A stretch of 64,000 bases of DNA from Squalus acanthias (GCA_030390025.1 CM059431.1:126606001-126670000); one strand, 5' to 3'; counted from the stretch's first letter, positions 2,545 to 60,971 are shown. The notes: generated from the letters alone by a model not told the origin. Program-made: numbers and translations.

Positions 2545-3740
2545 AAAGTTTTTTGCAGGGGTGGACGCAGATGGAAATAGGTTGGAAGGTGGTGGGGGGT
2601 TACGGGTGATAAAATGAATGGTCAGAGATGGCCTTGTCAATGATTGAGACCATGCAAGCAGTGAGGCCAGGAGAGACGGCAATGTAGAGGGGTGGACGTG
2701 ATAGGTAGGGGTGTTTAAGGGACAACAGGAGGGCAGTAAAATCGGAGGAGAAAGGACAAGGGGAGTTGAGATGGAGATTGAAATGACCGAGGAGGAGTCA
2801 ATGGGCTCGATTTTCCAAGCCCCGAGGAGGCGGGATTGGAGGCGTGTGAGGTGGTAAAATGGGAGAAATTGGGGGCGGGTGACACACCCGCCCCCATCCC
2901 GCCTCTGTGCCCTTTTGCCAGGAGCGGGATGATGTGCAGCTTCGGGTCCCGTCTCCTGGAGGCGGGAAAGGCTTTTAATCCTTTTAACTGCCTGTTAACA
3001 GGTAGTTAACAGGCAGAAAAAGGGATTAGTGCCATTTTACCTTCACAGGTGAAGGCTTCCCAACCTCGGAGAACCCCGTCGGGTTGGAGGAGACATGGAG
3101 GAGGTCTGCGACGGTCAGAGGCACCTGGAAGTAAGGTGTAGAGGTGAGTGATGGGTGCAAGTGTGGAGTGGTAAGTATGCAAGGTGAGTGATAAGTTTAA
3201 ACTTACCTTTTTTTACTTCTGTAGCCTTTAGCCGTGCTGGATCGGGAGAGTGGACATCCACCTTGTCAATTTCAGGTAATGGCCGATGGACCCTCCAATC
3301 CATCAGACATCTGAAATTTACTTTTTCCACAATGTTTTTTCAGTCCTCACCACAAAAACAAATCAAACTCAAGAGAATGTCAGTGTTTGACAGCTTCACA
3401 GAGCTGTCAAATGCTGTCATTTCTTCTTTCAAGAAGTCTTGACAGACAGCACGTCTGACGTTGACGTGATCTGTCAGTGACTTCTTCCATAATTGGCTTG
3501 CTGAGCCCGCCGGGCGGGCTTAACAAGCTCAATCAGGGGAAAATCCCTCTGAATGGTCAGGCGAGGATGGAGGCGGGACATTGAAACGACAAGCAGCAGT
3601 CCCGCCTCTAAGTCGCCTCCATTGACATAATCCAGCCCAATGAGTGCAGAGGCTGAAGGAGGAAAGCAGGGAGGATATGTTGGTGAGAAATCTGGGGTGG
3701 TGGGCAGTAGACAACAAGGATTTTAAAGGAGACAAGAGTG
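2545..3740 (-). mobile_element. L2 endonuclease-region fragment split by a MITE
   Basis: Removing 2803-3641 rejoins minus-strand ...SLLSSFSLCTH*LLLGHFNLHLNS (degenerate GDFN motif). Confidence 0.6.
2803..3638. mobile_element. Harbinger-type non-autonomous element (MITE)
   Basis: TIRs gggctcgatt / aatccagccc; perfect 3-bp TSD AAT (2800-2802, 3639-3641); inverted relative at 28533-30616. Confidence 0.85.
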
Positions 3741-3746
3741 GAAAAA

Positions 3747-3828
3747 ATGTCACAACGAACTGCTCTGATGTCACAACGGGCTGCTCTGATGTCACAACGG
3801 ACCGTTCTGATGTCACAGCAACTTCCTG
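3747..3828 (+). repeat. 21-bp tandem repeat, ~4 copies (atgtcacaacgRRctgctctg)
   Basis: Units start at 3747, 3768, 3789 and 3810. Confidence 0.9.
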
Positions 3829-4250
3829 ATGACATCATTAAGCAGCTTCAATCTCTGACACAGGAAGATCCCAATTTAAGGCAATTCTGCTAGAAATGTC
3901 TGTCCAACACTCCCATTTCCACATCTTTTGTCACAAGTACTTTGAGTGTCTGTGGTGCGATGAGGTTCTTTATTAGGAACAAACAGCTGCTCAATCCAAT
4001 ATGGCTGCCAAGGGTTGGGAATGTTGCCTTGTCCGTATGGTCTGTATCTCAGGCCTGGGCCTTAAACCCCAGCACCCACCTTAAAGCTGCCACAAAGAGC
4101 TGGCAGGACTTATATGGGCACATGACCCAGGGCCACATCACAATTGAGGGATTATGTAACCTGGCCTCACAATAAAAACCATGGCGACACAGAAACCCAG
4201 GGCTGGACAAAATACAGCAAAGTGCTACAAACTGTGCATTTCTGCATGAG

Positions 4251-5588
4251 ATGGATGTTGTGACAGAGATAAAGTGTCTCGGGCTAAAATCACAAATGGA
4301 CAACCTGCTTAACAAGCTCTACCAGCAGATTGGTGTTTCGCTGGAGTCTACTGATGATCTTGCTGTGAAGAACCAGACTGAGATCCTTCGCTGTTTCAGA
4401 GTTCTGTCCCCAGCTTATGCAGACAAATTGGTGGAATTTCTCCTATCTCAGTTAGAGAATGCTGACCAACAAATGAGAGTAGGAACACTCACCGTACTAA
4501 AGCTCCTCATCACATCGGTCTCATCGCACTTGGAGAGGAAGAAGGCTCAGATTGTGGCTGCAATAAAACCAGTCCTTCTCGACAAGAGTAGCAATCAGGA
4601 GAAGAAGCTCATTGCCCAGGTAATATGTGTCATGGCCCAGCAAGGTTACCTTGAGCCCAAGGGCGGAAAGGCAATGGTGCAATTCCTCATCCAACAGTGT
4701 GCGGCACCCGTTGGTTCTGGGTCCCTGGTACCACCCAATCATCAGCCAGACCCAGTAACAGATGAAGAATTAGTCACACTGTGTGAAAGAGTGATGTGTT
4801 TGATCACAACTGCAGTGAAGATGGAGGATGTCCTTTGGCCATCCTTACTGGAGTTTGTCACTATGATCCAGTACACCAAGACTTTAACAATAATCTGCAG
4901 TTGTTCAGCACATATTGGGAAAAAGAAACTGCGAGCTGGTAGTGAAAGCTTTTCCTTTATTTACAATGAAGATGCCAATCTCCCTAAAGCCCAGGTACTG
5001 CTGACCCGGCTCCTCGTTATGTCTTGTTGCCCATATCAGGGAGGAGGCCGAGGAGCTGTGGCACTGAGTCTACTGAAAGTCCCGAGTCTCGATGTCCACT
5101 CAGAATCAGTGAGGTGGTGGGAAGACGAGCTGACACCATTAGTTGACCATTTACTGGAAAATTCAGAGGAATCTCTGTCCCAATCGGAATGGGAGAATAA
5201 ATTATTGGCGGTCTTGCGCCGAGCTTTAAATACGATTGATGACGAGGAATGGACATGCCAGCTCGCTGATGAAATATCAAACATGTAGAAGCCTGGATCA
5301 GTTCAGCAAAAGATTTTGAACGAGAGAGAGCCATGGATGACCTTGGAGCTTCTGAAACTTTACTGGAGGAAGCTCAATGTTAGTGATGTAGTGCCTGGAA
5401 ATAACACGGGGACTCTGATTGGGTGACTGATGCCGCGCTGTGCAGACCCATCGCTTCCCGTTCGACAGATGGCCCTGGACTCTTTGTACATAATCCTGGC
5501 CATTCATTTGTCGTGTGAAGGCACCAATCTAGTTCAGCAAACGGAGCAGTTAGAGGGGCTGAAAAGAGTCAGAGAAAACTTGATTAAC
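4251..5588 (+). pseudogene. MROH1-like: Intronless MROH1-like (maestro heat-like repeat) copy, part 1
   Basis: 345-aa ORF with NQTEILRCF, RVGTL, MAQQGYLEPKGGKAMVQFLIQQCA, VLWPSLLEF, PYQGGGRGAVALSLL and EWENKLL, collinear with MROH1; followed by frameshifted WISS...ERERA and PRCADP...RQMALDSLY segments. Confidence 0.88.
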
Positions 5589-8500
5589 ATGAAACTATCG
5601 GATTGTCGTAAAAACCCATCTGGTTGACTAATGTCCTTTAGGGAAGGAAATCTGCCATCCTTACCTGGTCTGGCCTATATGTGACTCCAGACCGACAGCA
5701 ATGTGGTTGACTCTTAATTGCCCTCTGAAATGGCCTAGCAAGCCACTCAGTTGTAACTAAACGCTAGGAAACACAATAATAAAAATGAAACCGGATGGAC
5801 CACCTGGCATCGACCTCAGCACCGGCTACGGACACGGCAACAGCACACCCAGCCCAGTCAACCCTGCAAAGTCCTCCTCACCAGCATCTGGGGAGTTGTG
5901 CCAAAATTGGGAGAGAGGTCCCACAGACTAGTCAAGCGACAGCCGGACATATTCATACTCACAGAATCATACCTTTCAGCCAATGTCCCGAACTCGTCCA
6001 TCCCTATCCCTGGTTAAGTCCTGTCCCACGGGCAGGACAGACCCACCAGGGGTGGCGGCACAGTGGTATACAGTCGGGAAGGAGTGGCCCTGGGAGTCCT
6101 CAACATTGACTCCGGACCCTATGAAGTCTCATGGCTTCAGGTCAAGCATGGGCAAGGAAACCTGCTGCTGATTACCAACTACCACCCTCCCTCAGCTGAT
6201 GAATCAGTACTCCGCCATGTTGAATGCCAGTTGGAAGAAGCCCTGAGAGTAGCAAGGGCGAAGAATGTACTCTGGGTGGGGACTTCAATCTCCATCACCA
6301 AGAGTGGGTCGGTGGAACCACTACTGACCGAGCTGGCCGAGTCCTGATGGACAAAGCTGCCAGTCTGGGCCTGCGACAGGTGGTGAGAGAACCAACACGA
6401 GAGAAAAACATACTTGACCTCGTCCTCACCAATCTACCTGTCGCAGATGCATCTGTCCATGACAGTATTGGTAGCAGTGACCACGGCACAGTCATTGTGG
6501 AGACGAAGTCCTGTCTTCACACTGACGACACCCTCCATCATGTTGTGTGGCACTACCACCGTGCTAAATGGGATAGATTCAGAACAGATCTAGCAGCACA
6601 AAACTGGGCATCCATGAGGCGCTGTGGGCCATCAGCAGCAGCAGAATTGTATTCCACCACAATCTGTAACCTCATGGCCCGGCATATCCATCACTCTACC
6701 ATTACCATCAAGCCAGGGGACCAACCCTGGTTCAATGAGGAGTGCAGAAGAGCATGCGAGGAGCAGCACCAGGCGTACCTAAAAATGAGGCGTCAACCTG
6801 GGGAAGCTGCAACACAGGACTACATGCATGCTAAAAAGCGGAAGCAGCATGCTATAGACAGGGCTAAGCGATCCACAATCAACGGATCAGATCAAAGCTC
6901 TGCAGTCCTGCCACATCCAGTCATGAATGGTGGTGGATTATTAAACAACTAACGGGAGGAGGAGGCTTCATAAATATCCCCATCCTCAGTGATGGTGGAG
7001 CCCAGCATGTGAGTGCAAAAGACAAGGCTGAAGCGTTTGCAACCATCTTCAGCCAGAAGTACCGAGTGGATGATCCATATCGGCCTCCTCCTGCGGTCCC
7101 CACCATCACAGGAGCCAGTCTTCAGCCAATTTGATTCACTCCACGTGAAATCAAGAAATGGCTGAGCGCACTAGATACAGCAAAGGCTATGGGTCCTGAC
7201 AACATCCCAGCTATCGTGCTGAGGTCTTGTGCTCCAGAACTAGCCGTGCCTCCAGCCAAGCTGTTCCAGTACAGCTACAACACTGGCATCGAGCCGACAA
7301 TGCGGAAAACTGCCCAGGTGTGTCCTGTCCACAAAAAGCAGGACAAATCCAACCCGGCCAATTACCGCCCCATCAGTCGCCTCTCAATCATCAGCAAAGT
7401 GATGGAAGGTGTCATCGACAGTGCAATCAAGCGGCACTTACTCACCAATAACCTGCTCACTGATGATCAGTTTGGGTTCTGCCAAGACCACTCGGCCGCC
7501 GACCTCATTACAGCCTTGGTCCAACCATGGACCAAGGAGCTGAATTCCAGAGGTGAGGTGAGAGTGACTGCCCTTGACATCAAGGCAGCATTTGACCGAG
7601 TCTGGCATCAAGGAGTCCTAGTAAAACTGAAGTCAATGGGAATCAGGGGGAAAACAGTCCACTGGCTGGAGTCATACCTAGCACAAAGGAAGATGGTTGT
7701 GGTGGTTGAAGGTCAATCATCACAGCCCCAGGACAGCGCTGCAGGAGTTCCTCAGGGCAGTGTCCTAGGCCCAACCATCTTCAGCTGCTTCATCAATGAC
7801 CTTCCCTCCAACATAAGGTCAGAAATGGGGATGTTCGCTGATGACTGCACAGTGTTTAGCGCCATTCACAACTCCACAGATAATGAAGCAGTCCATGCCC
7901 GCATGCAACAAGACCTGGATGACGTTCAGGCTTGGGCTGATAAGTGGCAGGTAACATTCGCACGACAGAAGTGCCAGGCAATGACTATCTCCAACAAGCG
8001 AGAGTCAAAACACCGCCCCTTGACCTTCAGTGGCATTACCATCACCGAATCCCACACCATCAACATCCTGGGGGTCACCATTGACCAGAAACTTAACTGG
8101 ACCAGCCACATAAATACTGTGGCAACAAGAGCAGGTGAGAGGCTAGGTATTCTGCGGCGAGTGTCTCCCCTCCTGACTCCCTAAAGCCTTTCTACCATCT
8201 ACAAGGCACAAGTAAGGAGTGTGATGGAATATTCTCCACTTGCCTGGATGAGTACAGCTCCAACAACACTCAAGAAGCTCGACACCATCCAGGACAAAGC
8301 AGCCCGCTTGATTGGCACCCCCTCTACCACCTTAAACATCCACTCCCTCCACCACCGGCGTACTGTGGCTGCAGTGTGTACCATCGACAAGATGCACTGC
8401 AGCAACTCGCCAAGGCTTCTTCGGCAGCACCTCCCAAACCGGCGACCTCTTCCACCTAGAAGGACAAGGGCAGCAAACGCATGGGAACACCACCACCTCC

Positions 8501-8738
8501 AAGTTCCCCTCCAAGTCACAGATCATCCTGACTTAGAAGTATATCGCCGATCCTTCATCGTCGCTGGGTCAAAATCCTGGAACTCCCTACCTAACAGCAC
8601 TGTGGGAGTACCTTCACCACACGGACTGCAGCAGTTCAAGAAGGTGGCTCACCACCACCTTCTCAAGGGCAATTAGTGATGGGCAATAAATGCTGGCTTT
8701 GCCAGCGATGCCCACATCCCATAAAAATTAAAAAAAAA
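5589..8738 (+). mobile_element. Near full-length single-ORF CR1-group LINE (APE endonuclease + RT), disabled
   Basis: EN motifs (ILTESYL, GDFNLHH, LDLVLTN, SDH); RT motifs (NYRPIS, DIKAAFDRVWH, GVPQGSVLGP, FADD); A-rich tail; frameshifts/stops; inserted exactly between MROH codons ENLIN|PDL. Confidence 0.92.
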
Positions 8739-9050
8739 CCTGACCTTTCAGTGCTCTTTAACTCATGCTCTCTAATCACAGAGGTCATTTCCAAATGTTT
8801 GCCCCATGACCAGCTGGGTAACTTACTCTTCATGGTCTTCAAAGGACTTCATGCAAACTATCATTAAACTACGAGGCAATGAACTTGGGGACCAGGTGTC
8901 AGAGATAATTGATGCGCTGAGACTTGAATTGCAATCAATTCCTTACAAGCAGATGAAACTTTCAGTTCTGCGTAGTATCTCCATTCTGGCCTCACACAAC
9001 ACAGCAACAGTTGTGTCCTGTCTCCTCACCTACCCCGTCCCTTTGGACAC
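8739..9050 (+). pseudogene. MROH1-like: Intronless MROH1-like copy, part 2
   Basis: PDLSVLFNSCSLITEVISKCLPHDQL...RGNELGDQVSEIIDALR...VVSCLLTYPVPLD continues MROH1 homology after the LINE. Confidence 0.85.
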
Positions 9051-9777
9051 TCTTTCCCCATGACCCGGGACAAACAGCGTGAAGGTGCATGTGGCTTTGC
9101 TAGGATAGCTGGCTTCCCCATGGCGCAGGGCGCCATTGACTGCACGCATGTGGCATTGCGGGCACCTCATGAGAATGCAGAGGTATTCCGAAACTGCAAG
9201 GGCTTTCACTCTCTAATGTCCAGTTGGTGTGTGACCACAGACAGCGCATCCTCGCCGTCAATGCCCGCTATCCTGGCAGCAGCCATGATGCTTTTATCCT
9301 GCGTCAGACTGGTGTCCCAGGCCTCTTCCAACCACCGCGTCAACATCGTGGCTGGCTCCTCGGGGACAAGGGTTATCCACTCTGCACCTGGCTGGTGACA
9401 CCGCTCCGTAACCCCAACACTCCCAATGCATTGATAGCCATAGCGCCACCAGAAACCTCATTGAGCAGACGATTGGCATCTTGAAACAACGGTTCCAGTG
9501 TCTTGACCACTCTGGAGGAGCCCTGCAGTACTCTCCCGAGCGAGTCTCGCACTTCATTGTTGTGTGCTGCATGCTTCACAACCTTGCAATCATGAGGACA
9601 TAGCCATTGCCACCAAAGATTGGTGCACCACCTCAGGAAGAGGACGAGGGAGAGGAGGAGGAGGCGGAGGAGGAGGAGGATGAAGAGGAGGATCAGCAGC
9701 ACCAATATGGGAGGGAGGCACACAATGTTGCCTCTGCAAGGGCCGTCCGTGAACGCCTGATAGGACACCGCTTCTGA
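9051..9777 (+). pseudogene. Harbinger DDE transposase (HARBI1-like), 5'-truncated and frameshifted
   Basis: [57 protein letters not shown], acidic tail; TAG at 9601. Confidence 0.92.
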
Positions 9778-9892
9778 TGAATGACAGAGAAGATGGCTTC
9801 TGGGATGAGGAAGCACATCATCGCAAGCATCGCACAGCCCCTATTACCGGGCTAAGCTCCAATGAGACAAATGAGCAAAGTTGTAAACTTCC

Positions 9893-9912
9893 AATAAAAT
9901 GTTTTATTTATT
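9893..9912. terminator. Back-to-back poly(A) signals of the convergent Harbinger genes
   Basis: AATAAA on + at 9893 and TTTATT (AATAAA on -) at 9903-9912, between the two stop codons. Confidence 0.45.
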
Positions 9913-10083
9913 TTACAAACTGTCTTATTTATTCAGGACAAACAATTAGAAACAAACCCAACAATTCATAAACTAACAAAACTCGTTATCACAACATCGA
10001 GATAAGCAGCAAAACAGTAAAGAAATATATTAAGATGAACATCAAACTTTCCCACAAACATTCCCCCCATTTTTTAATAATTT

Positions 10084-11991
10084 TTACTTTTCGATCTTCG
10101 AGGGTGATCTCCATCCTCTGCGTACTTTCCCCCTTCCCACCCTACTACTCCTCCATAATGTGGCCCCAATGGCTGTAGCAAGGCTGGCAGAAGGCTGCTG
10201 AATGTTGGATCCAGAGACTGCTGATGACCTTGAAGGGCGCCCTCGACCAGCTCTGGGCATGGAGGGCCCGGCTGCAGACTGCACCAACTCTGCATGGGCG
10301 GCAGCAGTCTGGGCTGGCTGTGTTACAGGCTGTGGCAAGTGCAATGGCAGCGTGGCAGTGGTGGGAGCAGGAATGCTGTCATCCTGAGAGAGGACAACAT
10401 CTTCCTACTCGACCGACACACTGCCGCTCCCCCGGGGCAGAACCTCAGCATCCGGAGCAATCTGCTGGAGCACAGATTGCTGGCCTGCTGCAGTACCGTG
10501 AGATCCCCGGTGGACTGTGGGTGACCTAGCGAGGATGGCAGCAGTCAGCGCTTGCGTGACATCAATCTGAGACTTCAAGAGAGCAGTCTGAGACTGGATG
10601 ACACCAGCCAATGATTCGACTGCAGCACTAAGCCATTGCGTTGCGTCGGTCTGTGCTGCAATGGATCCTGCCACCTCACCCATTACACACGGTATGGGCT
10701 CTGGGTCCCCATGGCCTCCCTGCAATTCAACCATCCTCTGCAATGAGGCAAGGATGGGTTCAAGGGTTTGCGCACAGATGACAGCTGTGCTGGCGGCGGA
10801 CTCCTCCACGCTCCTAGCCAGTCCATCCATGCTGTCGGGCACCCTTGCCATTGCACCCATGAGCTCAGTGTGCATGCTCAAGGCCTGCATATTCATGGCC
10901 GCTATATCGAGGTCCTCATCCGAGTCCTGTGCAGCAGAACTCGTGCGTGTACTCACCCTCCGGGGAGATGGTCCCCGAGCTTCCCTTCCCCCATGGCATT
11001 GCTGCAGCCCGCTGGGTCCCGGAGCTTCACCCACATCAGATGCAAATCCCCTGCTCCCCTCCAGTGAACACGTGGCCCCAGTGTCGGAAGTATCACCCTC
11101 AGGAGACGCAGGCGGTGAGGCTCTGGCTTCCTCTCTCCTCTGGTGCGTCGCTGCCACTGGCAGGCTGAGGGACAGACTGGTCAGCTGGTGGTTCACTATC
11201 TGAAAGCAGGAAGTTACAAGAGTGGCTTTAATGTGAGGGCAGGGGGGCAGAAAGGGAGCAAGGACTGGAGACAGTTAGTTAGATTGAAAGTGTAAAAGAC
11301 TGGTGTTGTGAGGGGAAGTGGTATGAGAGAGGAGAGAAAGCTGTTGAACATACCATTGCTGTCCCCAAGGGGGTCGACCTCTCCACCGACCACAGCGCCT
11401 ACGACCTGGCTTGCAATCAGTATCTCGATTCTCTCCTCCAATTCAGTGAGGGGGTGTAGGTCCGCCTGTCCTCCTCCCATCTGCTGGGTCTCTCGGCAGT
11501 TATGTGAAAACTTGGGCCTGCAAGAAAAAGGAGAGTGTGTGAGTGAGTGTGCAGCCATGTGTTTGGCAGATGTGCCTACCATCGTTGAATAGCCGTTAAT
11601 GTGTGCATGGTGTGGGGTGTGCAAGTGAGTTTTATGAGATGGTCATAGTTGTTGGATGAGTGTTGGGCATTTGGGTATTTACACCGTCTGGGCACAGAGT
11701 GTAGTTGAGATGGTGGGATGTAGAAGTATTGAAAAGCAGGTACTCAGCCCTGACCACCCGAGTGAGGTCATTGAACTTTTTGCGACACTGTGTATGTGTC
11801 CTCTGCACCAGGCTCCGCAATGACACGTGCTGGGCCACCTCCCTCCAGACTCTTCTAAACTCGCAGGGCAATGGCCTCCTGCCACTCTCTGGAAAGAGCA
11901 CTGCCCGTCGCCGTTCAACTGCGCCAACCAGAGCCACCAAGGCCTGGTCCCTAAAGCGCCGAGCTCTCTCCCTGGGCCTCTGAGTATCCAT
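10084..11991 (-). pseudogene. Three-exon Harbinger Myb/SANT DNA-binding protein gene
   Basis: Exon 1 ~11991-11748 (RERARRF...WREVA...QCRKKFNDL); exon 2 11517-11354 (ttttcttgcag acceptor, gtatgt donor); exon 3 from 11199 (ctgctttcag acceptor), coiled-coil-like, with a frameshift near 10400. Confidence 0.8.
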
Positions 11992-13052
11992 CACAATTGT
12001 TTCAGCAATATCAATGAGTAGGTGTTTGCAGACCGAGGTCAAACGCTGCAATGAGCGAGGTGTGGCTGTGCAACAAGATGGACCCCCCCCTTTAAGAACT
12101 GGCCGGCGCCAGTCTGTCTGAGTACCAGTGTAATTGACATCGCGTGAGCTTCGGTAGCGTTCTGAGTTAGCGCCTCGCTCCCCGACATTAGCACCTTAAG
12201 AGAGGTGTGTTGCGCTTGATTTAGCGCTCAAATCACCTCCACTGGTGATGGAGGCGAATTTTGCGGTCGGCGGCGATAATTAGCGCCCGGCCGATATTAG
12301 CATGCAAATGGGTGATACCCAATTTCCCCCCCACGGAATCCCTATCTTTCGTTATGAACTGTCTACCCCTGCAAGCAGTATGGAAGAAATGAAAGGTTGC
12401 AATTGTGCTGACGATCTACAGTAATACCCAAATCTTAATATGCAACACACCGTGAGCATGACAACATTTACATATAAAATGCACATTCGATGGATCATTA
12501 CTTTGGACTGAATGCATGCAAGGATTTGAATAAAGGAATCTTTTGAGTCGAAGGCTGGTGGTGTTACATCCACACTTTACTTAATGGTCATTCATGGCCA
12601 TTATTAAAAAAAGTCTAAGACTGTGTCATAGGTGGATCATACACTGAGTTAATGGAATGGGAGTGTATTATTTTTACTGTAATATAATTCTTCCTAAGTT
12701 GCCTCCAGGTACTGGATACGTTGCTCCTGGCATTTACACTAATTGTCATTTCTTGTCAATCCTGTTAGATTGCTTGCCTGTGGGTCTGCAGCATTCTATT
12801 GAAGAAAGACAGTCCCTTTCTTGTGCCTCACTTCTTTCATCAGAATTTCTGTGGCCCCATTGGAGAAACTGGGCATTCTGTGTCTTCTTGAAATGCCTGC
12901 ATACTTGTTTACAAAGATAATGGTGCTGCCTTACAAATTGTGATGCCTGCCTCTTTAAGCAACTACAGGCCTTTCAATCCTTCAGCAGTGCCTGCTTTCT
13001 CAGCCTCCAATAAGCACCTCCCCAGTGACTGCCATTTTCATGCTGAGACTTT

Positions 13053-25460: not shown

Positions 25461-27100
25461 ATTTTATTTTTATTCGTTTATGGGATGTGGGCGTCGCTGG
25501 CAATGCCAGCATTTATTGCCTATCACTAGTTGCCCTTGAGAAGGTGGTGTGAACCGCCTTCTTGAGCCGCTGCAGTCCGTGTGGTGAAGGTACTCCCACA
25601 GTGCTGTTAGGGAGGGAGTTCCAGAATTTTGATCCAGCGACGATGAAGGATCAGCGATATATTTCAAAGTCAGGATGGTGTGTGACTTGGAGGGGAACTT
25701 GGAGGTGGTGGTGTTCCCATGCACCTGCTGCCCTTGTCCTTCTAGGTGGAAGAGGTCGCGGGTTTGGGAGGTGCTGCCGAAGAAGCCTTGGCAAGTTGCT
25801 GCAGTGCATTTGTAGATGGTACACACTGTAGCCACGGTACGCTGGTGGTGGAGGGAGTGAATGTTTAAGGTGGTAGATGGGGTGCCAATCAAGCGGGCTG
25901 CTTTGTCCTGGATGGTGTCGAGCTTCTTGAGTGTTGTTGGAGCTGCACTCATCCAGGCAAGTGGAGAGTATTCCATCACACTCCTTACTTGTGCCTTGTA
26001 GATGGTGGAAAGGCTTTGGGGAGTCAGGAGGTGAGACACTCGCTGCAGAATACCAAGCCTCTGACCTGTTGTTGTTGCCACAGTATTTATGTGGCTGGTC
26101 CAGTTAAGTTTCTGGTTAATGGTGACCCCCAGGTTGTTGATAGTGGGGGATTTGGCAATGGTAATGCCATTGAATGTCAAGGGGATGTGGTTGGACTCTC
26201 GTTTGTTGGGGATAGTCATTGCCTGTCACTTGTGTGGCGCAAATGTTACCTGCCACTTATCAGCCCAAGCCTGAACATCATCCAGGTCTTGTTGCATGCG
26301 GGCATGGACTGCTTCATTATCTGTGGCGTTGTGAATGGCGCTGAACACTGTGCAGTCATCAGCGAACATCCCCATTTCTGACCTTATGTTGGAGGGAAGG
26401 TCATTGATGAAGCAGCTGAAGATGGTTGGGCCTTGGATACTGCCCTGAGGAACTCCTGCAGCAATGTCCTGGGGCTGTGATGATTGACCTTCAACCACCA
26501 CAACCATCTTCCTTTGTACTAGGTATGACTCCAGCCAGTGGAGCGTTTTCCCCTGATCCCATTGGCTTCAGTTTTACTAGGGCTGCTTGATGCCAGATTC
26601 TGTCAAATGCTGCCTTGATGTCAAGGGCAGTCACTCTCACCTCACCTCTAGAATTCAGCTCCTTTGTCCATATTTGGACCAAGGCTGTAATGAGGTCGGA
26701 AGCCAAGTGGTCTTGGTGGAACCCAAACTGGGCATCAGTGAGCAGGTTATTGGTGAGTAAGTGCCGCTTGATAGCACTGTCGATGACACCTTCCATCACT
26801 TTGCTGATGATTGAGAGTCGACTGATGGGGCGGTAATTGGCCGGGTTGGATTTGTCCTGCTTTTTGTGGATAGGGTATACCTGGGCAGTTTTCCACATTG
26901 TCGGATAGATGCCAGTGTTGTAGCTGTACTGGAACAGCTTGGCTAGAGGCGCGGCTAGTTCTGGAGCACAAGTCTTCAGCACGATAGCCGGGATGTTGTC
27001 GGGGCCCATAGCCTTTGCTGTATCCAGTGCGCTCAGCCATTTCTTGATATCACGTGGAGTGAATCGAATTGGCTAAAGAATGGCATCTGTGATGATGGGG
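25461..27100 (-). mobile_element. 5'-truncated copy of the 5589-8738 LINE family
   Basis: Near-identical RT peptides (MGPDNIPAIVL..., FADDCTVF) and the same 3' tail; frameshifted. Confidence 0.92.
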
Positions 27101-27371
27101 ATATTATGAACAATTAGTCCACTTTTCTGTCACCACCACAACTTCCCCTGTTATGGTGGGCTGCAGCCCTTTAAAAACTGCTCCCTTGCTGGATGTTGTG
27201 ATGCCCAGCTAAGTGTACTAGAGCCCGATCTCTTTGGACATTGTTTTTCCTGAGCGTATAGGCTATTCAAAATATGGGACAATGATTATATTGCAAAATT
27301 CAGCGTTGCCTGCTTCTTGAGCTATAGGCATAGATGTGCCAGTTCATTGGGCCAGCACAACTTCATTTTTC

Positions 27372-28053: not shown

Positions 28054-28532
28054 TTGCTTTTCATTTAAAATATAAAATATAAATTGAACAATAAATAGCA
28101 ATAAAGGTCAGTTTGCTGTACATAAATGTGAACAAGAAACCAAACAAAATCCCTTAATGGACATAATTGAATCTGAGTCTTTGTAACATTGATATAAACT
28201 TCTAAAGATTTCTGATGTTTCAGCACTTTGTTGATTTCAGTGTAAGTTGTTTGGATCCTGTATTAAGTTCTTGTGCATGTACAGTTACTGCACTTCAAAA
28301 AGCAGTTTACTGTGTGAAGCACTTTGAGATGTTCCGTGATAACATGTTATCTAAATGAAGTATTACTATTCGACATTTGGGTCTTCTTGAGTAGGAAATG
28401 TCTTCATTGTTTGTAATCTTAACCTTATTTTATGGCCCTGAAATTGCGGTCGGAGGCATACCTCTGAAGTACACCTCCGACCTGTGAAACATTTCCGAAC
28501 TTACCTCCAGGCTCCCAGGCTGTGGAGAGTTT

Positions 28533-30616
28533 GGGCTGGATTTTCTCAATGGGGAGCTTTTGGAGGCGAGACTCCCAATTGTCGGGTTTTAGTCCCGCCT
28601 CCATTGACTTATGGCCAACCCACGCTATTTTCCCTTGATTGACCTTGTTAAGCCTGCCCAATGGACTTAGCAGGCCAATTAAGGAGAAGCCGGTTACAGG
28701 TAAAGTTGGCGAGTGATTTTTCATCTGTCAAGAGCTTTTGACAGATGAAATGTCAGCGTTTGACGGCTCTGTGAAGCTGTCAAACACTGACAATCTGTCC
28801 TCTAAGTTGAGCCCTTCCACTCAGGCTCAGTTAGAGATCTCTCCTGAGCAGAAAGCAGAAGGCTGCAGCTTTTGATAGTTCAGCGGCCATTCTGCTTTCT
28901 GTGCCGGTGAGCTGAGGGACTTCCGAGACCTGAAGGGATGAAACCTGCAGGAAGAAGTAAAGGTAAGTAAAACTTATTAAAACACTTTACACTCACCTCA
29001 CACACTTACCTATCCACACTTGCACTCATCACTCACCTACACATCTCGGCTGGTAGAGTAACTGGTAGAATAGATAAGGGAGAACCAGTGGATGTGGTGT
29101 ATTTGGACTTTCAGAAGGCTTTCGATAAGGTCCCGCATAAGAGATTAGCATGCAAAGTTAAAGCACACGGGATTGGGGGTAAGGAACTGTCTTGGATAGA
29201 GAACTGGTTGGCAGACAGGAAGCAAAGAGTTGGAATAAACGGGTCTTTTTCCGAGTGGCAGGCAGTGACTAGTGGGGTACGGCAGGGATCGGTGCTCGGA
29301 CCCCAGCTATTCACAATATATATAAATGATCTAGATGAGGGAACTAGATGTAATATCTTCAAGTTTGCAGATGACACAAAGCTGGGTGGGCGTGTGTGCT
29401 GTGAGGAGGATGCCAAGAAACTCCAGTATGATTTGGACAGGTTGGGTGATTGGGCAGATGCAAGGCAAATGCAGTATAATGTGGATAAATGCGAGGTTAT
29501 CCACTTCGGTGGCAAAAACAGGAAGACAGATTATTATCTGAACGGCAATAGATTGGGAAAAGGGGAAGTGCAACAAGACCTGGGTGTCCTTGTGCACCAG
29601 TTGCTGAAGGTAAGCATGCAGGTGCAGCAGGCGGTTAAGAAGGCAAATGGTATGTTGGCCTTCATAGCGAGAGGATTCGAGTACAGGAGCAAGGATGTCT
29701 TGCTGCAGTTGTACAGGGCCTTGGTGAGACGACACCTTGAGTATTGTGTGCAGTTTTGGTCACCTTATCTGAGGAAGGATGTTCTTGCCATGGAGAGAGT
29801 GCAGCGAAGATTCATCACACTGATACCTGGGATGGCAGGAATGACGTATGAGGAGAGATTGGGTCGATTAGGCTTATATTTGCTAGAGGTTAGAAGAATG
29901 AGAGGGGATCTCATTGAAACTTATAAAATTCTAACAGGACTAGACAGACTAGATGCAGGAAGGATGTTTCCTATGGCGGGGGACTCCAGAACCAGGGGTC
30001 ACAGTCTAAGGATAAGGGGTAAGCCATTTAGGACTGAGATGAGGAGGAATTTCTTCAACCAGAGAGTGGTGAACCTGTGGAATTCTCTACCACACAAGGC
30101 AGTTGAGGCCAATTCATTAAATATATTCAAGAAGGAGTTAGATATATTTCTTAAGGCTAAAGGGATCAAGGGATATGGGGCGAAAGCAGGGACAGGGTAC
30201 TGCATTTGGATGATCAGCCATGATCTCATTAAATGGCGGAACAGGCTCGAGGGGCCGAATGGCCTACTCCTGCTCCTATCTTCTATGTTTCTATGGCCCC
30301 TCCGACCCCCACAGACCGACGGCCCGCCTCGCTGACCTTGGCGAGGTTTGGAGCCGTCGGGAAGCCCACACTTCAGGGCTGAAAATAGGGATTCTCCAAA
30401 AAACTGCCTGTTAACTACCTGTTAACAGGCAGTTAAGTGGCACTAATTCCCTTCCCGCCTCGAGGAGACGGGACCCGGCGCGGGTCAGGCACCCGCCTCC
30501 TGGGAAGATGGCACGGATGCGGGTTGGGGGTGGGATAGGTACCCGCCCTAGATTCTGCCATTTTCCTGGCAATCCCGCCTCCTTACCCGCCTCCCCAGGA
30601 CTGGCAAAATCGCCCC
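28533..30616. mobile_element. MITE of the 2803-3638 family, inverted, nested and split by CR1
   Basis: Ends gggctggatttt / aaaatcgcccc; internal homology to 2803-3638. Confidence 0.75.
29058..30294 (+). mobile_element. CR1 LINE 3' part (RT C-half, open frame)
   Basis: YLDFQKAFDKVPH, QGSVLGP, FADDTKL, HLEYCVQFWSP; tail ttctatgtttctat. Confidence 0.95.
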
Positions 30617-31352
30617 ATTTGGGTCATGGGCCTCCAGGCGTACGCCTGTATAAAGGCCCACTGATCCCAGGGACTCAGGCGGTTCGGAAGCGTCCCGAGG
30701 TTCACGTGGGCCAGGTCCTCCAATCACAAAGGAGGATTTAATTGCAGTCATTTCCGAACGGAATCCCCTAAAGGCATGCAATGAAATCCCCAAATAATTA
30801 AACAATTTACTCAATTCTAATAAATATAAATGTTCTGAATTTCAAATTTAATTAAAAGACCTTTCCTTACACCAAATTCAATAAAAATTAAATTTTTTGC
30901 AAAATAATTTTAAACATTTTAATTCGGGCCAATATTTGCATAAACTAATTTTAAGTGTTTGTGCATCATATTTATTTTTAAATGTCTAATTTAAGATTTA
31001 TAATCACCATTACACTCATGAAATCAGGCTCTATGGCTGCTTTTACCAGCCATAAGAGTTTTGTGGGCAATTGCTGGGCAGTTGTTGGGCAAATAGCCCA
31101 ACTCTGCGCCAGCGAAACTGATTTTAAATTCGGTTCGGTAGATCTGTCAAGGCAAACCTTGACAGATCACAAGTTCCGGGTTTTCATGGTTGCGCAAGTG
31201 GAAACCTGGAATTTTCAGGGCCTTTCAGAAGGATTAGAACGGCATATGCCATCGAAGACACTGTAATTTCAGGGCCAACATAATCTGACATTCCACTGTC
31301 TGAAATATTTTCCCTCTATATGTTTTATTTTCTTAATATGGGTACAGACACT

Positions 31353-48978: not shown

Positions 48979-51900
48979 CGGGGACGGGTCCGAATGGAGA
49001 GAAGGGGCGGGTCCGTTTGGAGAGAAGGGGCGGGTCAGGATGGAGAGCAGGGACGGGTCTGGATGGAGAGAAGGGGTGGGTCAGGATGGAGAGAAGGGGT
49101 GGGTCAGGATGGAGAGAAGGGGCGGGTCAGGATGGAGAGAAGGGGTGGGTCAGGATGGAGAGACGGGGCGGGTCAGGATGGAGAGAAGGGGCGGGTAAGG
49201 ATGGAGAGAAGGGGCGGGTCAGGATGGAGAGCAGGGACGGGTCTCGATGGAGAGAAGGGGTGGGTCAGGATGGAGAGAAGGGGTGGGTCAGGATGGAGAG
49301 AAGGGGCGGGTCAGGATGGAGAGAAGGGGCGGGTCAGGATGGAGAGACGGGGTGGGTCAGGATGGAGAGAAGGGGTGGGTCTGGATGGAGAGCAGGGACG
49401 GGTCAGGATGGAGAGAAGGGGCGGGTCAGGATGGAGAGCAGGGACGGGTCTAGATGGAGAGAAGGGGCGGGTCAGGATGGAGAGACGGGGCGGGTCAGGA
49501 TGGAGAGAAGGGGTGGGTCTGGATGGACAGCAGGGACGGGTCAGGATGGAGAGAAGGGGCGGGTCAGGATGGAGAGACGGGGCGGGTCAGGATGGAGAGA
49601 AGGGGTGGGTCTGGATGGAGAGCAGGGACGGGTCAGGATGGAGAGAAGGGGCGGGTCAGGATGGAGAGCAGGGACGGGTCTGGATGGAGAGAAGGGGCGG
49701 GTCAGGATGGAGAGCAGGGGCGGGTCAGGATGGAGAGCAGGGGCGGGTCAGGATGGAGAGAAGGGGTGGGTCTGGATGGAGAGCAGGGACGGGTCAGGAT
49801 GGAGAGAAGGGGTGGGTCAGGATGGAGAGAAGGGGCGGGTAAGGATGGAGAGAAGGGGCGGGTCAGGATGGAGAGCAGGGACGGGTCTCGATGGAGAGAA
49901 GGGGTGGGTCAGGATGGAGAGAAGGGGTGGGTCAGGATGGAGAGAAGGGGCGGGTCAGGATGGAGAGAAGGGGCGGGTCAGGATGGAGAGACGGGGCGGG
50001 TCAGGATGGAGAGAAGGGGTGGGTCTGGATGGAGAGCAGGGACGGGTCAGGATGGAGAGAAGGGGCGGGTCAGGATGGAGAGCAGGGACGGGTCTAGATG
50101 GAGAGAAGGGGCGGGTCAGGATGGAGAGACGGGGCGGGTCAGGATGGAGAGAAGGGGTGGGTCTGGATGGAGAGCAGGGACGGGTCAGGATGGAGAGAAG
50201 GGGCGGGTCAGGATGGAGAGACGGGGCGGGTCAGGATGGAGAGAAGGGGTGGGTCTGGATGGAGAGCAGGGACGGGTAAGGATGGAGAGAAGGGGCGGGT
50301 CAGGATGGAGAGCAGGGACGGGTCTGGATGGAGAGAAGGGGCGGGTCAGGATGGAGAGCAGGGGCGGGTCAGGATGGAGAGCAGGGGCGGGTCAGGATGG
50401 AGAGAAGGGGTGGGTCTGGATGGAGAGCAGGGACGGGTCAGGATGGAGAGAAGGGGTGGGTCTGGATGGAGAGCAGGGATGGGTCAGGATGGAGAGAGGG
50501 GGCAGGTCCGGATGGAGAGCGGGGGTGTGTCAGGATGGAGAGCGGGGGTGGGTCAGGATGGAGAGAAGGGGCGGGTCGGGATGGAGAGAAGGGGCGGGTC
50601 TGGATGGAGAGCAGGGACGGGTCAGGATGGAGAGAATGGGCGGGTCCGGATGGAGAGCAGGAGCGGGTCAGGATGGAGAGAATGGGCGGGTCCGGATGGA
50701 GAGCAGGAGCGGGTCAGGATGGAGAGAAGGGGCGGGTCAGGATGGAGAGAAGGGGCGGGTCAGGATGGAGAGAAGAGGCGGGTCAGGATGGAGAGAAGGG
50801 GCGGGTCAGGATGGAGAGAAGAGGCGGGTCAGGATGGAGAGAAGGGGCGGGTCAGGATGGAGAGAAGAGGCGGGTCAGGATGGAGAGAAGGGGCGGGTCA
50901 GGATGGAGAGAAGAGGCGGGTCAGGATGGAGAGAAGGGGCGGGTCAGGATGGAGAGAAGGGGCGGGTCAGGATGGAGAGAAGAGGCGGGTCAGGATGGAG
51001 AGAAGCGGCGGGTCAGGATGGAGAGAAGGGGCGGGTCAGGATGGAGAGAAGGGGCGGGTCAGGATGGAGAGAAGGGGCGGGTCAGGATGGAGAGAAGAGG
51101 CGGGTCAGGATGGAGAGAAGGGGCGGGTCAGGATGGAGAGAAGGGGCGGGTCAGGATGGAGAGAAGAGGCGGGTCAGGATGGAGAGAAGCGGCGGGTCAG
51201 GATGGAGAGAAGAGGCGGGTCAGGATGGAGAGAAGGGGCGGGTCAGGATGGAGAAAAGAGGCGGGTCAGGATGGAGAGAAGGGGCGGGTCAGGATGGAGA
51301 GAAGGGGCGGGTCAGGATGGAGAGCAGGGACGGGTCTGGATGGAGAGAAGGGGCGGGTCAGGATGGAGAGAAGGGGTGGGTCAGGATGGAGAGAAGGGGC
51401 GGGTCAGGATGGAGAGAAGGGGCGGGTCAGGATGGAGAGAATGGGCGGGTCAGGATGGAGAGCAGGGGTGGGTCCGGATGGAGAGAAGGGGCGGGTCTGG
51501 ATGGAGAGAATGGGCGGGTCCGGATGGAGAGAAGGGATGGGTCAGGATGGAGAGCAGGGGCGGGTCAGGATGGAGAGAAGGGGCGGGTCAGGATGGAGAG
51601 AAGGGGCGGGTCAGGATGGAGAGAATGGGCGGGTCAGGATGGAGAGCAGGGGTGGGTCCGAATGGAGAGAAGGGGCGGGTCTGGATGGAGAGAATGGGCG
51701 GGTCTGGATGGAGAGAAGGGATGGGTCAGGATGGAGAGCAGGGGCGGGTCAGGATGGAGAGCAGGGGCGGGTCAGGATGGAGAGAAAGGGGCGGGTCTGG
51801 ATGGAGAGAAAGGGGCGGGTCAGGATGGAGAGAATGGGCGGGTCCGGATGGAGAGAATGGGCGGGTCAGGATGGAGAGAAAGGGGCGGGTCAGGATGGAG

Positions 51901-54900
51901 AGAATGGGCGGGTCCGGATGGATGAAAGGGGCGGGTCTGGATGTAGAGAATGGGCGGGACAGGATGGAGAGCAGGGGCGGGTCAGGATGGAGAGAAAGGG
52001 GCGGGTCTGGATGGAGAGAAAGGGGCGGGACAGGATGGAGAGCAGGGGCGGGTCAGGATGGAGAGAAAGGGGCGGGTCTGGATGGAGAGAAAGGGGCGGG
52101 TCAGGATGGAGAGAAGGGGCGGGTCAGGATGGAGAGAAGGGGTGGGTCAGGATGGAGAGAAGGGGCGGGTCCGGATGGAGAGAAGGGGCGGGTCCGGATG
52201 GAGAGAAGGGGCGGGTCAGGATGGAGAGAAGGGGCGGGTCAGGATGGAGAGAAGGGGCGGGTCAGGATGGAGAGAATGGGCGTGTCTGGATGGAGAGAAG
52301 GGGGCGGGTCAGGATGGAGAGAAGGGGCGGGTCCGGATGGAGAGAATGGGCAGGTCAGGATGGAGAGAAGGGGCGGGTCAGGATGGAGAGAAGGGGCGGG
52401 TCAGGATGGAGAGAAGGGGCGGGTCCGGATGGAGAGAAGGGGCGGGTCAGGATGGAGAGAATGGGCGGGTCAGGATGGAGAGAAGGGGCGCGTCAGGATG
52501 GAGAGAATGGGCGGGTCAGGATGGAGAGAAGGGGTGGGTCAGGATGGAGAGAAGGGGCGGGTCAGGATGGAGAGAATGGGCGGGTCCGGATGGAGAGAAG
52601 GGGCGGGTCAGGATGGAGAGAAGGGGTGGGTCAGGATGGAGAGAATGGGCGGGTCCGGATGGAGAGAAGGGGCGGGTCAGGATGGAGAGCAGGGGCGGGT
52701 CAGGATGGAGAGAAGGGGCGGGTCAGGATGGAGAGAAGAGGCGGGTCAGGATGGAGAGAAGGGACGGGTCAGGATGGAGAGAAGAGGCAGGTCAGGATGG
52801 AGAGAAGGGGCGGGTCAGGATGGAGAGAAGAGGCGGGTCAGGATGGAGAGAAGGGGCGGGTCAGGATGGAGAGAAGAGGCGGGTCAGGATGGAGAGAAGG
52901 GGCGGGTCAGGATGGAGAGAAGGGGCGGGTCAGGATGGAGAGAAGAGGCGGGTCAGGATGGAGAGAAGCGGCGGGTCAGGATGGAGAGAAGGGGCGGGTC
53001 AGGATGGAGAGAAGGGGCGGGTCAGGATGGAGAGAAGGGGCGGGTCAGGATGGAGAGAAGAGGCGGGTCAGGATGGAGAGAAGGGGCGGGTCAGGATGGA
53101 GAGAAGGGGCGGGTCAGGATGGAGAGAAGAGGCGGGTCAGGATGGAGAGAAGCGGCGGGTCAGGATGGAGAGAAGAGGCGGGTCAGGATGGAGAGAAGGG
53201 GCGGGTCAGGATGGAGAAAAGAGGCGGGTCAGGATGGAGAGAAGGGGCGGGTCAGGATGGAGAGAAGGGGCGGGTCAGGATGGCGAGCAGGGACGGGTCT
53301 GGATGGAGAGAAGGGGCGGGTCAGGATGGAGAGAAGGGGTGGGTCAGGATGGAGAGAAGGGGCGGGTCAGGATGGAGAGAAGGGGCGGGTCAGGATGGAG
53401 AGAATGGGCGGGTCAGGATGGATGGAGAGCAGGGGTGGGTCCGGATGGAGAGAAGGGGCGGGTCTGGATGGAGAGAATGGGCGGGTCCGGATGGAGAGAA
53501 GGGATGGGTCAGGATGGAGAGCAGGGGCGGGTCAGGATGGAGAGAAGGGGCGGGTCAGGATGGAGAGAAGGGGCGGGTCAGGATGGAGAGAATGGGCGGG
53601 TCAGGATGGAGAGCAGGGGTGGGTCCGGATGGAGAGAAGGGGCGGGTCTGGATGGAGAGAATGGGCGGGTCTGGATGGAGAGAAGGGATGGGTCAGGATG
53701 GAGAGCAGGGGCGGGTCAGGATGGAGAGCAGGGGCGGGTCAGGATGGAGAGAAAGGGGCGGGTCTGGATGGAGAGAAAGGGGCGGGTCAGGATGGAGAGA
53801 ATGGGCGGGTCCGGATGGAGAGAATGGGCGGGTCAGGATGGAGAGAAAGGGGCGGGTCAGGATGGAGAGAATGGGCGGGTCCGGATGGATGAAAGGGGCG
53901 GGTCTGGATGTAGAGAATGGGCGGGACAGGATGGAGAGCAGGGGCGGGTCAGGATGGAGAGAAAGGGGCGGGTCTGGATGGAGAGAAAGGGGCGGGACAG
54001 GATGGAGAGCAGGGGCGGGTCAGGATGGAGAGAAAGGGGCGGGTCTGGATGGAGAGAAAGGGGCGGGTCAGGATGGAGAGAAGGGGCGGGTCAGGATGGA
54101 GAGAAGGGGTGGGTCAGGATGGAGAGAAGGGGCGGGTCCGGATGGAGAGAAGGGGCGGGTCCGGATGGAGAGAAGGGGCGGGTCAGGATGGAGAGAAGGG
54201 GCGGGTCAGGATGGAGAGAAGGGGCGGGTCAGGATGGAGAGAATGGGCGTGTCTGGATGGAGAGAAGGGGGCGGGTCAGGATGGAGAGAAGGGGCGGGTC
54301 CGGATGGAGAGAATGGGCAGGTCAGGATGGAGAGAAGGGGCGGGTCAGGATGGAGAGAAGGGGCGGGTCAGGATGGAGAGAAGGGGCGGGTCCGGATGGA
54401 GAGAAGGGGCGGGTCAGGATGGAGAGAATGGGCGGGTCAGGATGGAGAGAAGGGGCGCGTCAGGATGGAGAGAATGGGCGGGTCAGGATGGAGAGAAGGG
54501 GTGGGTCAGGATGGAGAGAAGGGGCGGGTCAGGATGGAGAGAATGGGCGGGTCCGGATGGAGAGAAGGGGCGGGTCAGGATGGAGAGAAGGGGTGGGTCA
54601 GGATGGAGAGAATGGGCGGGTCCGGATGGAGAGAAGGGGCGGGTCAGGATGGAGAGCAGGGGCGGGTCAGGATGGAGAGAAGGGGCGGGTCCGGATGGAG
54701 AGAAGGGGCGGGTCAGGATGGAGAGAAGGGGCGGGTCAGGATGGAGAGAATGGGCGGGTCCGGATGGAGAGAAGGGGCGGGTCAGGATGGAGAGCAGGGG
54801 CGGGTCAGGATGGAGAGAAGGGGCGGGTCCGGATGGAGAGAAGGGGCGGGTCAGGATGGAGAGAAGGGGCGGGTCAGGATGGAGAGAAGGGGCGGGTCAG

Positions 54901-54949
54901 GATGGAGAGAAGGGGCGGGTCAGGATGGAGAGAAGGGGCGGGTCAGGAT
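48979..54949 (+). repeat. 23-bp G-rich minisatellite, ~260 copies (gggtcaggatggagagaaggggc)
   Basis: Direct reading; variant units recur at 644-bp and 1967-bp offsets. Confidence 0.97.
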
Positions 54950-59039: not shown

Positions 59040-60730
59040 TCGGAGGCAGCGGCTGTGGGACATCAAGAAGAGAGCGGAGGAACAGCACGGACCTAATCGG
59101 AGGCAGCGGTGGAACATAAAGGAGAGAGCAGAGGAACAGCACCGTCCTAATCGGAGGCAGCGGTGGAACATAAAGGAGAGAGCGGAGGAACAGCACGGAC
59201 CTAATCGGAGGCAGCGGTGGAACATAAAGGAGGGAGCGGAGGAACAGCACCGTCCTAATCGGAGGCAGCGGCGGTGGAACATAAAGGAGAGAGCAGAGGA
59301 AGAGCATGGTCCTAATCGGAGGCAGCGGCGGTCGAACATAAAGGAGAGAGCGGAGGAACAGCATGGTCCTAATCGGAGGCAGCGGCGGTCGAACATAAAG
59401 GAGAGAGCGGAGGAACAGCATGGTCCTAATCGGAGGCAGCGGCGGTGGAACATAAAGGAGAGAGCAGAGGAAGAGCATGGTCCTAATCGGAGGCAGCGGC
59501 GGTCGAACATAAAGGAGAGAGCGGAGGAACAGCATGGTCCTAATCGGAGGCAGCGGCGGTCGAACATAAAGGAGAGAGCGGAGGAACAGCATGGTCCTAA
59601 TCGGAGGCAGCGGCGGTCGAACATAAAGGAGAGAGCGGAGGAACAGCATGGTCCTAATCGGAGGCAGCGGCGGTGGAACATAAAGGAGAGAGCGGAGGAA
59701 CAGCACGGTCCTAATCGGAGGCAGCGGCGGTCGAACATAAAGGAGAGAGCAGAGGAACAGCACGGTCCTAATCGGAGGCAGCGGTGGAACATAAAGGAGA
59801 GAGCAGAGGAACAGCACGGTCCTAATCGGAGGCAGCGGTGGAACATAAAGGAGAGAGCAGAGGAACAGCACCGTCCTAATCGGAGGCAGCGGTGGAACAT
59901 AAAGGAGAGAGCGGAGGAACAGCACGGTCCTAATCGGAGGCAGCGGTGGAACATAAAGGAGAGAGCAGAGGAACAGCACCGTCCTAATCGGAGGCAGCGG
60001 TGGAACATAAAGGAGAGAGCAGAGGAAGAGCATGGTCCTAATCGGAGGCAGTGGCGGTCGAACATAAAGGAGAGAGCGGAGGAACAGCATGGTCCTAATC
60101 GGAGGCAGCGGCGGTCGAACATAAAGGAGAGAGCGGAGGAACAGCATGGTCCTAATCGGAGGCAGCGGCGGTCGAACATAAAGGAGAGAGCGGAGGAACA
60201 GCATGGTCCTAATCGGAGGCAGCGGCGGTGGAACATAAAGGAGAGAGCGGAGGAACAGCATGGTCCTAATCGGAGGCAGCGGCGGTCGAACATAAAGGAG
60301 AGAGCGGAGGAACAGCATGGTCCTAATCGGAGGCAGCGGCGGTGGAACATAAAGGAGAGAGCGGAGGAACAGCATGGTCCTAATCGGAGGCAGCGGCGGT
60401 GGAACATAAAGGAGAGAGCGGAGGAACAGCATGGTCCTAATCGGAGGCAGCGGTCGAAAATAAAGGAGAGAGCGGAGGAACAGCACCGTCCTAATCGGAG
60501 GCAGCGGTGGAACATAAAGGAGAGAGCAGAGGAACAGCACGGACCTAATTGGAGACAGCGGTGGAACATAAAGGAGAGAGCGGAGGAACAGCACGGACCT
60601 AATCGGAGGCAGCGGTCGAACATAAAGGAGAGAGCGGAGGAACAGCGTGGACCTAATTGGAGACAGCGGTGGAACATAAAGGAGAGAGCAGAGGAACAGC
60701 ACGGTCCTAATCGGAGGCAGCGGCGGTCGA
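59040..60730 (+). repeat. 54/57-bp CpG-rich tandem array, ~30 copies
   Basis: Unit cctaatcggaggcagcgg(cgg)tSgaacataaaggagagagcRgaggaacagcaYggt. Confidence 0.95.
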
Positions 60731-60971
60731 ATCTTCCACAATTTCAAAAAAAAACAAGGTGTCACGTCACAGGACAGCAGGTAACTGATTGGTTGGTGAG
60801 TATCAAGGGTTTTTTCTTCTCTCTAAACTAAGACAGTGGTTTAATCTACGAGCGGGAAACTACAACATACTGTTTTAAATTTATAGCTTAACTAGTTAAA
60901 CTAATTAATATAAATAATTGTTGAATAAAGACTTTAACTAATTAAATAAATAAAACAAGGCTAGACTAAGA

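Follow-up and report, generated by a model that had tools for sequence, protein, structure and literature searches.

A decayed MROH1-like gene fragment joined to a truncated Harbinger transposon in Squalus acanthias, probably by deletion

Introduction

Published work on MROH1 (HEATR7A) and C. elegans HPO-27 identifies them as lysosome fission factors and names exons 5-7 of MROH1, a multi-exon gene (PMC13587356). Pack-TYPE transposons, including Pack-PIF elements of maize and rice, are characterized by a terminal repeat at each end, a duplication and copies that cluster (PMC8903248). In vertebrates, a study of Harbinger transposons reports none detected in the elephant shark and calls for a check of other cartilaginous fish (PMC9179366). 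Here we describe a locus in Squalus acanthias at which MROH1-like coding sequence runs directly into a Harbinger transposase. The locus lies in a 64,000-nt stretch of one strand (GCA_030390025.1 CM059431.1:126606001-126670000), which we call the window and whose coordinates we use throughout.

In a genome this dense in transposons, we regard the join as ordinary decay. A private deletion probably connected this copy, a decayed member of an intron-poor MROH1 paralogue family that multiplied as DNA, to a neighboring Harbinger. The probably multi-copy MROH1 family of sharks and rays that came to light in this work is a more useful by-product than the join.

Results

The MROH1-like fragment and its join to Harbinger

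MROH homology ends at codon 1147 (9046-9048), with its last base at 9049, and transposase sequence follows from 9050. Codons are numbered on a 1624-aa white-shark protein (P0001). Homology to the transposase becomes recognizable at 9051-9054, which corresponds to residue 149-154 of homologues that are 387-410 aa long. The MROH frame is +1 and the transposase frame is +3, and the MROH reading hits a stop four codons beyond the join. No filler separates the two parts at the join. There is no poly(A) at the join, the longest A run within 9001-9100 being 3, and no target duplication around the unit, since the 3-mers at 4251, 512 and 12332 do not match. A sequence-only reading of this stretch had placed the switch near 9050 and described it as a change of frame, with neither poly(A) nor target duplication and with the transposase N-terminus missing; our coordinates bear out this description.

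The MROH portion matches the PF23210 (MROH) profile with an E-value of 3.9e-94 and is 67% identical to XP_041052603.1 of Carcharodon. It retains 1,649 of 4,872 coding nt, about one third, in three blocks on the + strand (Table 1), and lacks codons 1-289 and 632-926. Block 1 aligns to P0001 from 4251 to 5276 without gaps at 67% identity, giving 1,026 nt of continuous coding sequence, in agreement with the earlier claim of more than 1 kb. A hidden Markov model (HMM) of the clade described below extends block 1 weakly leftward to codon 281, at 4221, and finds no trace of codons 1-280 in the window; no further MROH pieces were found there with an HMM built from 17 clade proteins. A long interspersed nuclear element (LINE), which we take to be CR1-like, separates codons 1030 and 1031 and is 93% identical to a second window copy at 25462-27101. 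Exon skipping was considered for the absence of codons 632-926 and is ruled out by the frame change and the microhomology at that point. By these lesions the locus reads as a dead, decayed gene fragment. Its product is predicted to be non-functional because the MROH reading stops just past the join and the transposase has no N-terminus.

We found no convincing MROH-transposase fusion protein: 1 of 199 MROH proteins matched a transposase HMM and none of 60 transposases matched an MROH HMM. The match of P0133 to the transposase HMM covers an acidic stretch only and is not a fusion. Pristiophorus protein P0045 ends where MROH ends in this copy, by a frameshift within MROH and with no transposase join, and we regard this as coincidence. 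Block 3, searched at protein level in lengths of 41-133 aa, returned no match, and exact look-up of eight window products in the collection searched returned none of the eight. Metagenome scans gave 74 pattern matches, none confirmed, in one case and no matches in another.

The fragment belongs to an elasmobranch MROH1 paralogue clade

A maximum-likelihood tree (38 rows, 342 columns) places the window MROH within a shark and ray protein clade of 23 rows, supported at 100/100. Teleost and tetrapod MROH1 lie outside this clade, as do three other clades of shark proteins. Within the 23 rows, the grouping of the window with Pristiophorus has support of only 86/87. The tree thus assigns the locus to an elasmobranch-specific MROH1 paralogue clade and not to canonical MROH1. 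The named proteins closest to the window sequence all come from sharks and rays. Paralogues of the clade share one chromosome in Rhinoraja (three, with near-consecutive accessions), Pristis (two), Narcine (two) and Leucoraja (two), and Pristiophorus has four clade proteins (P0008, P0044, P0045 and P0046) that are 99.2-99.6% identical. These shared chromosomes and near-identical proteins suggest that the clade is old and duplication-prone. A search of titles and abstract openings for MROH1 in sharks, or for an MROH1 retrogene, yielded nothing on this clade, although the expansion may be listed in the gene-family tables of shark genome papers.

The Rhinoraja cluster comprises P0013, P0015 and P0047. 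At least four further MROH1-like lineages occur in sharks. One protein, P0020 (1654 aa), sits on a 39.7-kb contig, so that other MROH clades may also be intron-poor.

The family is amplified together with upstream DNA in related genomes

Part of the stretch 3900-5640 was contained in 20 of the 23 listed sequencing runs (8 studies, at least 8 organisms), the best of which held 0.37 of its words. Four of these runs (X4, X5, X6 and X18) were aligned to 3600-9500 at 85% likeness. X5 and X6 comprise about 2 Gb of contigs each, and X5 is guessed to be DNA. The median summed depth of nine bins that span 3797-5569 was 1980 in X5 against a baseline of 19 (ratio 104) and 829 in X6 against 9.3 (ratio 89). 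The baseline was taken from long listed pieces, 7 of 8 for X5 and 6 of 8 for X6, after pieces of depth 201, 51 and 192 were dropped. Individual contigs reached high depths: 475 (one, at 3963) and 603 (two, at 5336) in X5, and 168 (one, at 3694) in X6. Related genomes therefore probably hold tens of near-identical MROH1-like copies, a count in two-fold doubt.

The amplification extends into non-coding DNA. Upstream and coding bins had depths of 1665 and 1981 in X5 and of 846 and 863 in X6, and record 10 of X4 bridges 4117-4364, across the junction at 4250 between upstream DNA and codon 290. Because the amplified unit includes its upstream flank, it would have been duplicated as DNA and not by repeated retrotransposition of mRNA. 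X18, whose kind is guessed as RNA, covers upstream and coding bins alike and was not used to judge expression or intron status. A 21-bp repeat of 4.1 copies (3747-3831) lies inside the co-amplified upstream DNA.

Harbinger depth at 9086 exceeded MROH depth at 8953 by 34x in X5 and 58x in X6. Nearly all Harbingers of this family must therefore carry no MROH.

Several lesions appear private to this copy

Alleles in the related runs mostly escape the damage seen here. At the frameshift in block 2, 603 of 638 depth in X5 has the two bases that are missing from the window. Among the best-supported 40 of 735 difference rows, the 21 coding differences comprise 6 synonymous and 15 non-synonymous changes; for 13 of the latter, it is the runs that carry the commoner clade residue. 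The related-genome alleles thus mostly keep conserved residues and frame and look conserved for coding, and the family may represent a large expansion of coding genes. At the internal deletion, record 12 of X4 parts from the window at 5281, its remaining 187 letters unaligned, and record 3 of X18 joins it at 5277 with 755 letters unaligned; the minus-strand coordinates of these ends are our own reading. This copy thus has one large deletion behind it, and the join is most economically explained by another at 9049/9050.

Intron loss is probably old

Canonical MROH1 has about 43 exons. Exon boundaries inferred from lemur, jerboa, mouse and degu protein isoforms (proteins, not gene maps) fall at codons 517, 591, 962 and 1096, and the window is continuous through all four. 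Moreover, four low-depth X6 contigs, 87-92% alike, align unbroken over 247-327 nt. Where three clade gene models have gaps, the coding DNA of this copy reads GT at 3 of 5 donors and AG at both acceptors that the window covers, against a background of 9% of codons for GT and 12% for AG. One such gap, 413-552 of a skate model, sits on GT..AG inside coding DNA. By this indirect evidence, the model gaps behave like introns invented in continuous coding DNA, and the loss of introns is probably old and common to the elasmobranch clade. The sequence-only reading had taken the intronless MROH to imply an RNA intermediate. Introns are indeed absent at the four inferred boundaries, but because their loss is probably old and clade-wide, no retrocopying at this site has to be assumed.

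The 5' edge of the homology may have a different cause. The whale-shark model P0041 ends an exon at codon 289, and clear homology in the window starts at codon 290, directly after AG. The 4.2 kb upstream of MROH is repeat debris, the acceptor context before 4251 is weak, and the clade HMM finds no MROH homology in 3640-4260 beyond codon 281. The chances seem evenly balanced that a long intron was retained before codon 290, possibly in a partly processed gene.

The Harbinger element and its surroundings

The transposase is 75% identical to P0052 and carries a frameshift at ~9214, a short deletion at ~9420-9433 and a stop at 9601. The convergent Myb/SANT gene scores 28.4 bits against PF13873, above the cut-off of 21.7, and falls below the family cut-off for PF13837. 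The right terminal repeat is assigned from its position and G-rich end, and its 14-nt motif, when as many as 2 mismatches are allowed, matches nothing in the window but itself. A left end was sought in the 4.25 kb upstream of MROH. The best look-alike, 512-533, has 5 mismatches in 20, is one of four such matches on the + strand of the window (chance level) and has unmatched flanking 3-mers; we rejected it, which upholds the earlier statement that no left terminal repeat lies upstream. Paired ends with a 3-bp duplication were thus not found, and the element is a truncated Harbinger copy that lost its left end and first ~150 residues.

We also rejected an upstream Harbinger-type element (2803-3638) as the missing left end. 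What we label a miniature inverted-repeat transposable element (MITE), inside what we label an old LINE remnant, has two ends of its own and an AAT duplication, and it is therefore a separate insertion. A second, related Harbinger-type MITE lies at 28530-30620 (-), interrupted by a LINE piece. Other transposase pieces (22.5, 32.0, 42.1-42.7 and 44.4-46.3 kb) and Myb pieces (0.6-1.1, 15.3-16.9 and 37.4-37.6 kb) in the window are all partial. Harbinger remains account for no less than 8.8% of the remaining window sequence, and the 64 kb contains six or more further remnants of transposases or MITEs. Given such dense debris, a deletion ending within Harbinger DNA is unremarkable. Elsewhere in the window, a purine-rich 23-bp satellite of 259 copies and a 57-bp repeat of 30 copies occupy 48981-54949 and 59040-60731.

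Table 1. Features of the MROH1-like and Harbinger locus, in window coordinates
Feature	Coordinates	Strand	Description
Harbinger-type MITE	2803..3638	+	both ends, 3-bp AAT duplication, inside old LINE remnant
Non-coding DNA upstream of MROH	3694..4250		as deep as coding part in related genomes; ~550 nt
MROH1-like block 1	4251..5281	+	codons 290-631, open, intron-free
5-bp microhomology	5277..5281	+	at internal deletion of codons 632-926 (~885 nt), frame changes
MROH1-like block 2	5277..5588	+	codons 927-1030; 2-nt frameshift at 5336, stop at 5424
LINE	5589..8738	+	endonuclease and reverse transcriptase (RVT_1, Exo_endo_phos_2), A-rich tail; 3.15 kb
MROH1-like block 3	8739..9049	+	codons ~1031-1147; frameshift ~8849
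Harbinger transposase	9050..9777	+	C-terminal 60% only; PF13359 (DDE_Tnp_4) E 1.2e-11, above cut-off
Harbinger Myb/SANT gene	10084..11995	-	convergent with transposase; PF13873 E 1.6e-6
Right terminal repeat of Harbinger	12311..12332	-	putative; no partner in window

Discussion

How might a shark MROH1 paralogue have come to end in a transposase? An old RNA-based duplication before the split of sharks and rays may have founded the intron-poor clade, perhaps with an intron kept before codon 290. The clade would then have multiplied by tandem or segmental duplication, reaching the tens of copies that contig depth suggests in related genomes. This copy would have decayed through the substitutions, two frameshifts, stop, LINE insertion and internal deletion seen in it. 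Finally, codons 1148-1624 and the 3' flank were probably lost in a second deletion, which also took the left 40% of a Harbinger that lay in or behind the gene. The sequence-only reading had offered, as one of two origins, a one-off deletion that fused a retrocopy to a neighboring Harbinger. Deletion does fit best; the retrocopy is the part of that proposal that can be dispensed with.

Its other proposal was that a Harbinger derivative captured spliced MROH sequence and spread paralogues, in the manner of Pack-type elements. The absence of filler at the join, the presence of the Myb gene and right end, the many copies of MROH and its upstream DNA in related genomes and the existence of Pack elements of the PIF superfamily in plants (PMC8903248) all suit such cargo. 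However, the 4.25 kb upstream offers neither left terminal repeat nor duplication and is pieced together from old elements that are independent of one another. Conserved-looking alleles and copies that extend past the internal deletion fit whole genes better, clade paralogues in other species share one chromosome, and no fusion turned up among the 199 MROH proteins and 60 transposases. Of this proposal, then, the multiplicity survives; an amplified unit that includes upstream DNA, copies free of the internal deletion and the lack of a fusion protein speak against the rest, and we consider it very unlikely that a Harbinger derivative took up the block and spread it. We are just as skeptical of its fullest form, in which a vertebrate Harbinger derivative would have carried an intron-free MROH1 block to ~100 places in shark genomes from a left end more than 4 kb upstream. 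Were the cargo reading true, Pack-type gene capture would extend to vertebrate Harbingers.

Two other histories keep the deletion and change its timing or its target. The deletion may have happened once, long ago, with the fused block then copied by segmental duplication without transposition; the equal depth of flanking non-coding DNA is in keeping with this, as is the lack of any view of the junction in other copies. Yet the other lesions of this copy, namely the 5336 frameshift, the internal deletion and the 15 non-synonymous changes, are largely private, and we judge a co-amplified join to be unlikely. Alternatively, the locus may be a recent processed pseudogene of an intron-containing clade gene, truncated 5' at codon 290 and later cut by the deletion. 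The abrupt start of homology near codon 290, the absence of codons 1-280 from the window and two gaps in P0041 that could be real introns would suit such an origin. Against it, a contig of another organism spans the junction between upstream DNA and codon 290, which is present in many copies; contigs from diverged genomic copies likewise show no break, and the skate model gap lies on splice-like dinucleotides inside coding DNA. A recent retrocopy at this locus is highly improbable.

Several observations weigh against a private deletion in a DNA-amplified, intron-poor family. Among the contig rows listed for the four runs, many of them LINE matches, none spans 9049/9050, so that the join is seen neither present nor absent elsewhere. 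Summed contig depth is not copy number, and haploid or diploid representation alone leaves two-fold doubt; the amplified unit continues leftward past 3600, the start of the compared stretch, and the window itself has one MROH copy and no tandem array. At 5336, only 151 of 357 depth in X6 has the restored frame, and the differences that we classified, 21 of them coding, come from the best-supported 40 of 735 rows. The unaligned letters of X4 record 12 and X18 record 3 are presumed to be codons 632-926. As for introns, gene structure in the clade was deduced indirectly, and genuine exon joins also favor AG|GT. The two P0041 gaps, 774/775 and 1096/1097, lie at most 2 residues from mammalian isoform boundaries and may be real introns.

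Sharks and rays appear to possess an unstudied MROH1 paralogue clade that is probably intron-poor and seemingly present in tens of near-identical copies in some species. Because MROH1 acts in lysosome fission in both mammals and worms, a large lineage-specific expansion would be worth mapping and testing for tissue of expression. MROH copies reportedly also figure in a preprint on bird segmental duplications (bioRxiv 10.1101/2023.02.19.529176), a possible precedent for amplification by this route.

How does this locus compare with described systems? The fragment shares the HEAT-repeat family (PF23210) of MROH1/HEATR7A and HPO-27 and is ~40% identical to them, but it belongs to a separate clade, and their function is not transferable to it. 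Its closest relatives are annotated elasmobranch paralogues of the same clade (XP_041052603.1 of Carcharodon, XP_078271720/733/735.1 of Rhinoraja and four Pristiophorus UniRef100 entries), which are 52-67% identical over block 1. These are full length (~1600-1670 aa; one Pristiophorus protein is frameshifted at 1141), whereas this copy is dead and keeps one third of the coding length. As in vertebrate Harbingers (PMC9179366), the window element has a DDE_Tnp_4 transposase and a Myb-like gene; unlike them, it is without its left end and first 150 residues. Harbingers are abundant in this shark window. Finally, as in Pack-PIF elements (PMC8903248), host-gene DNA stands beside a PIF/Harbinger end; unlike them, the locus has one end only and no duplication.

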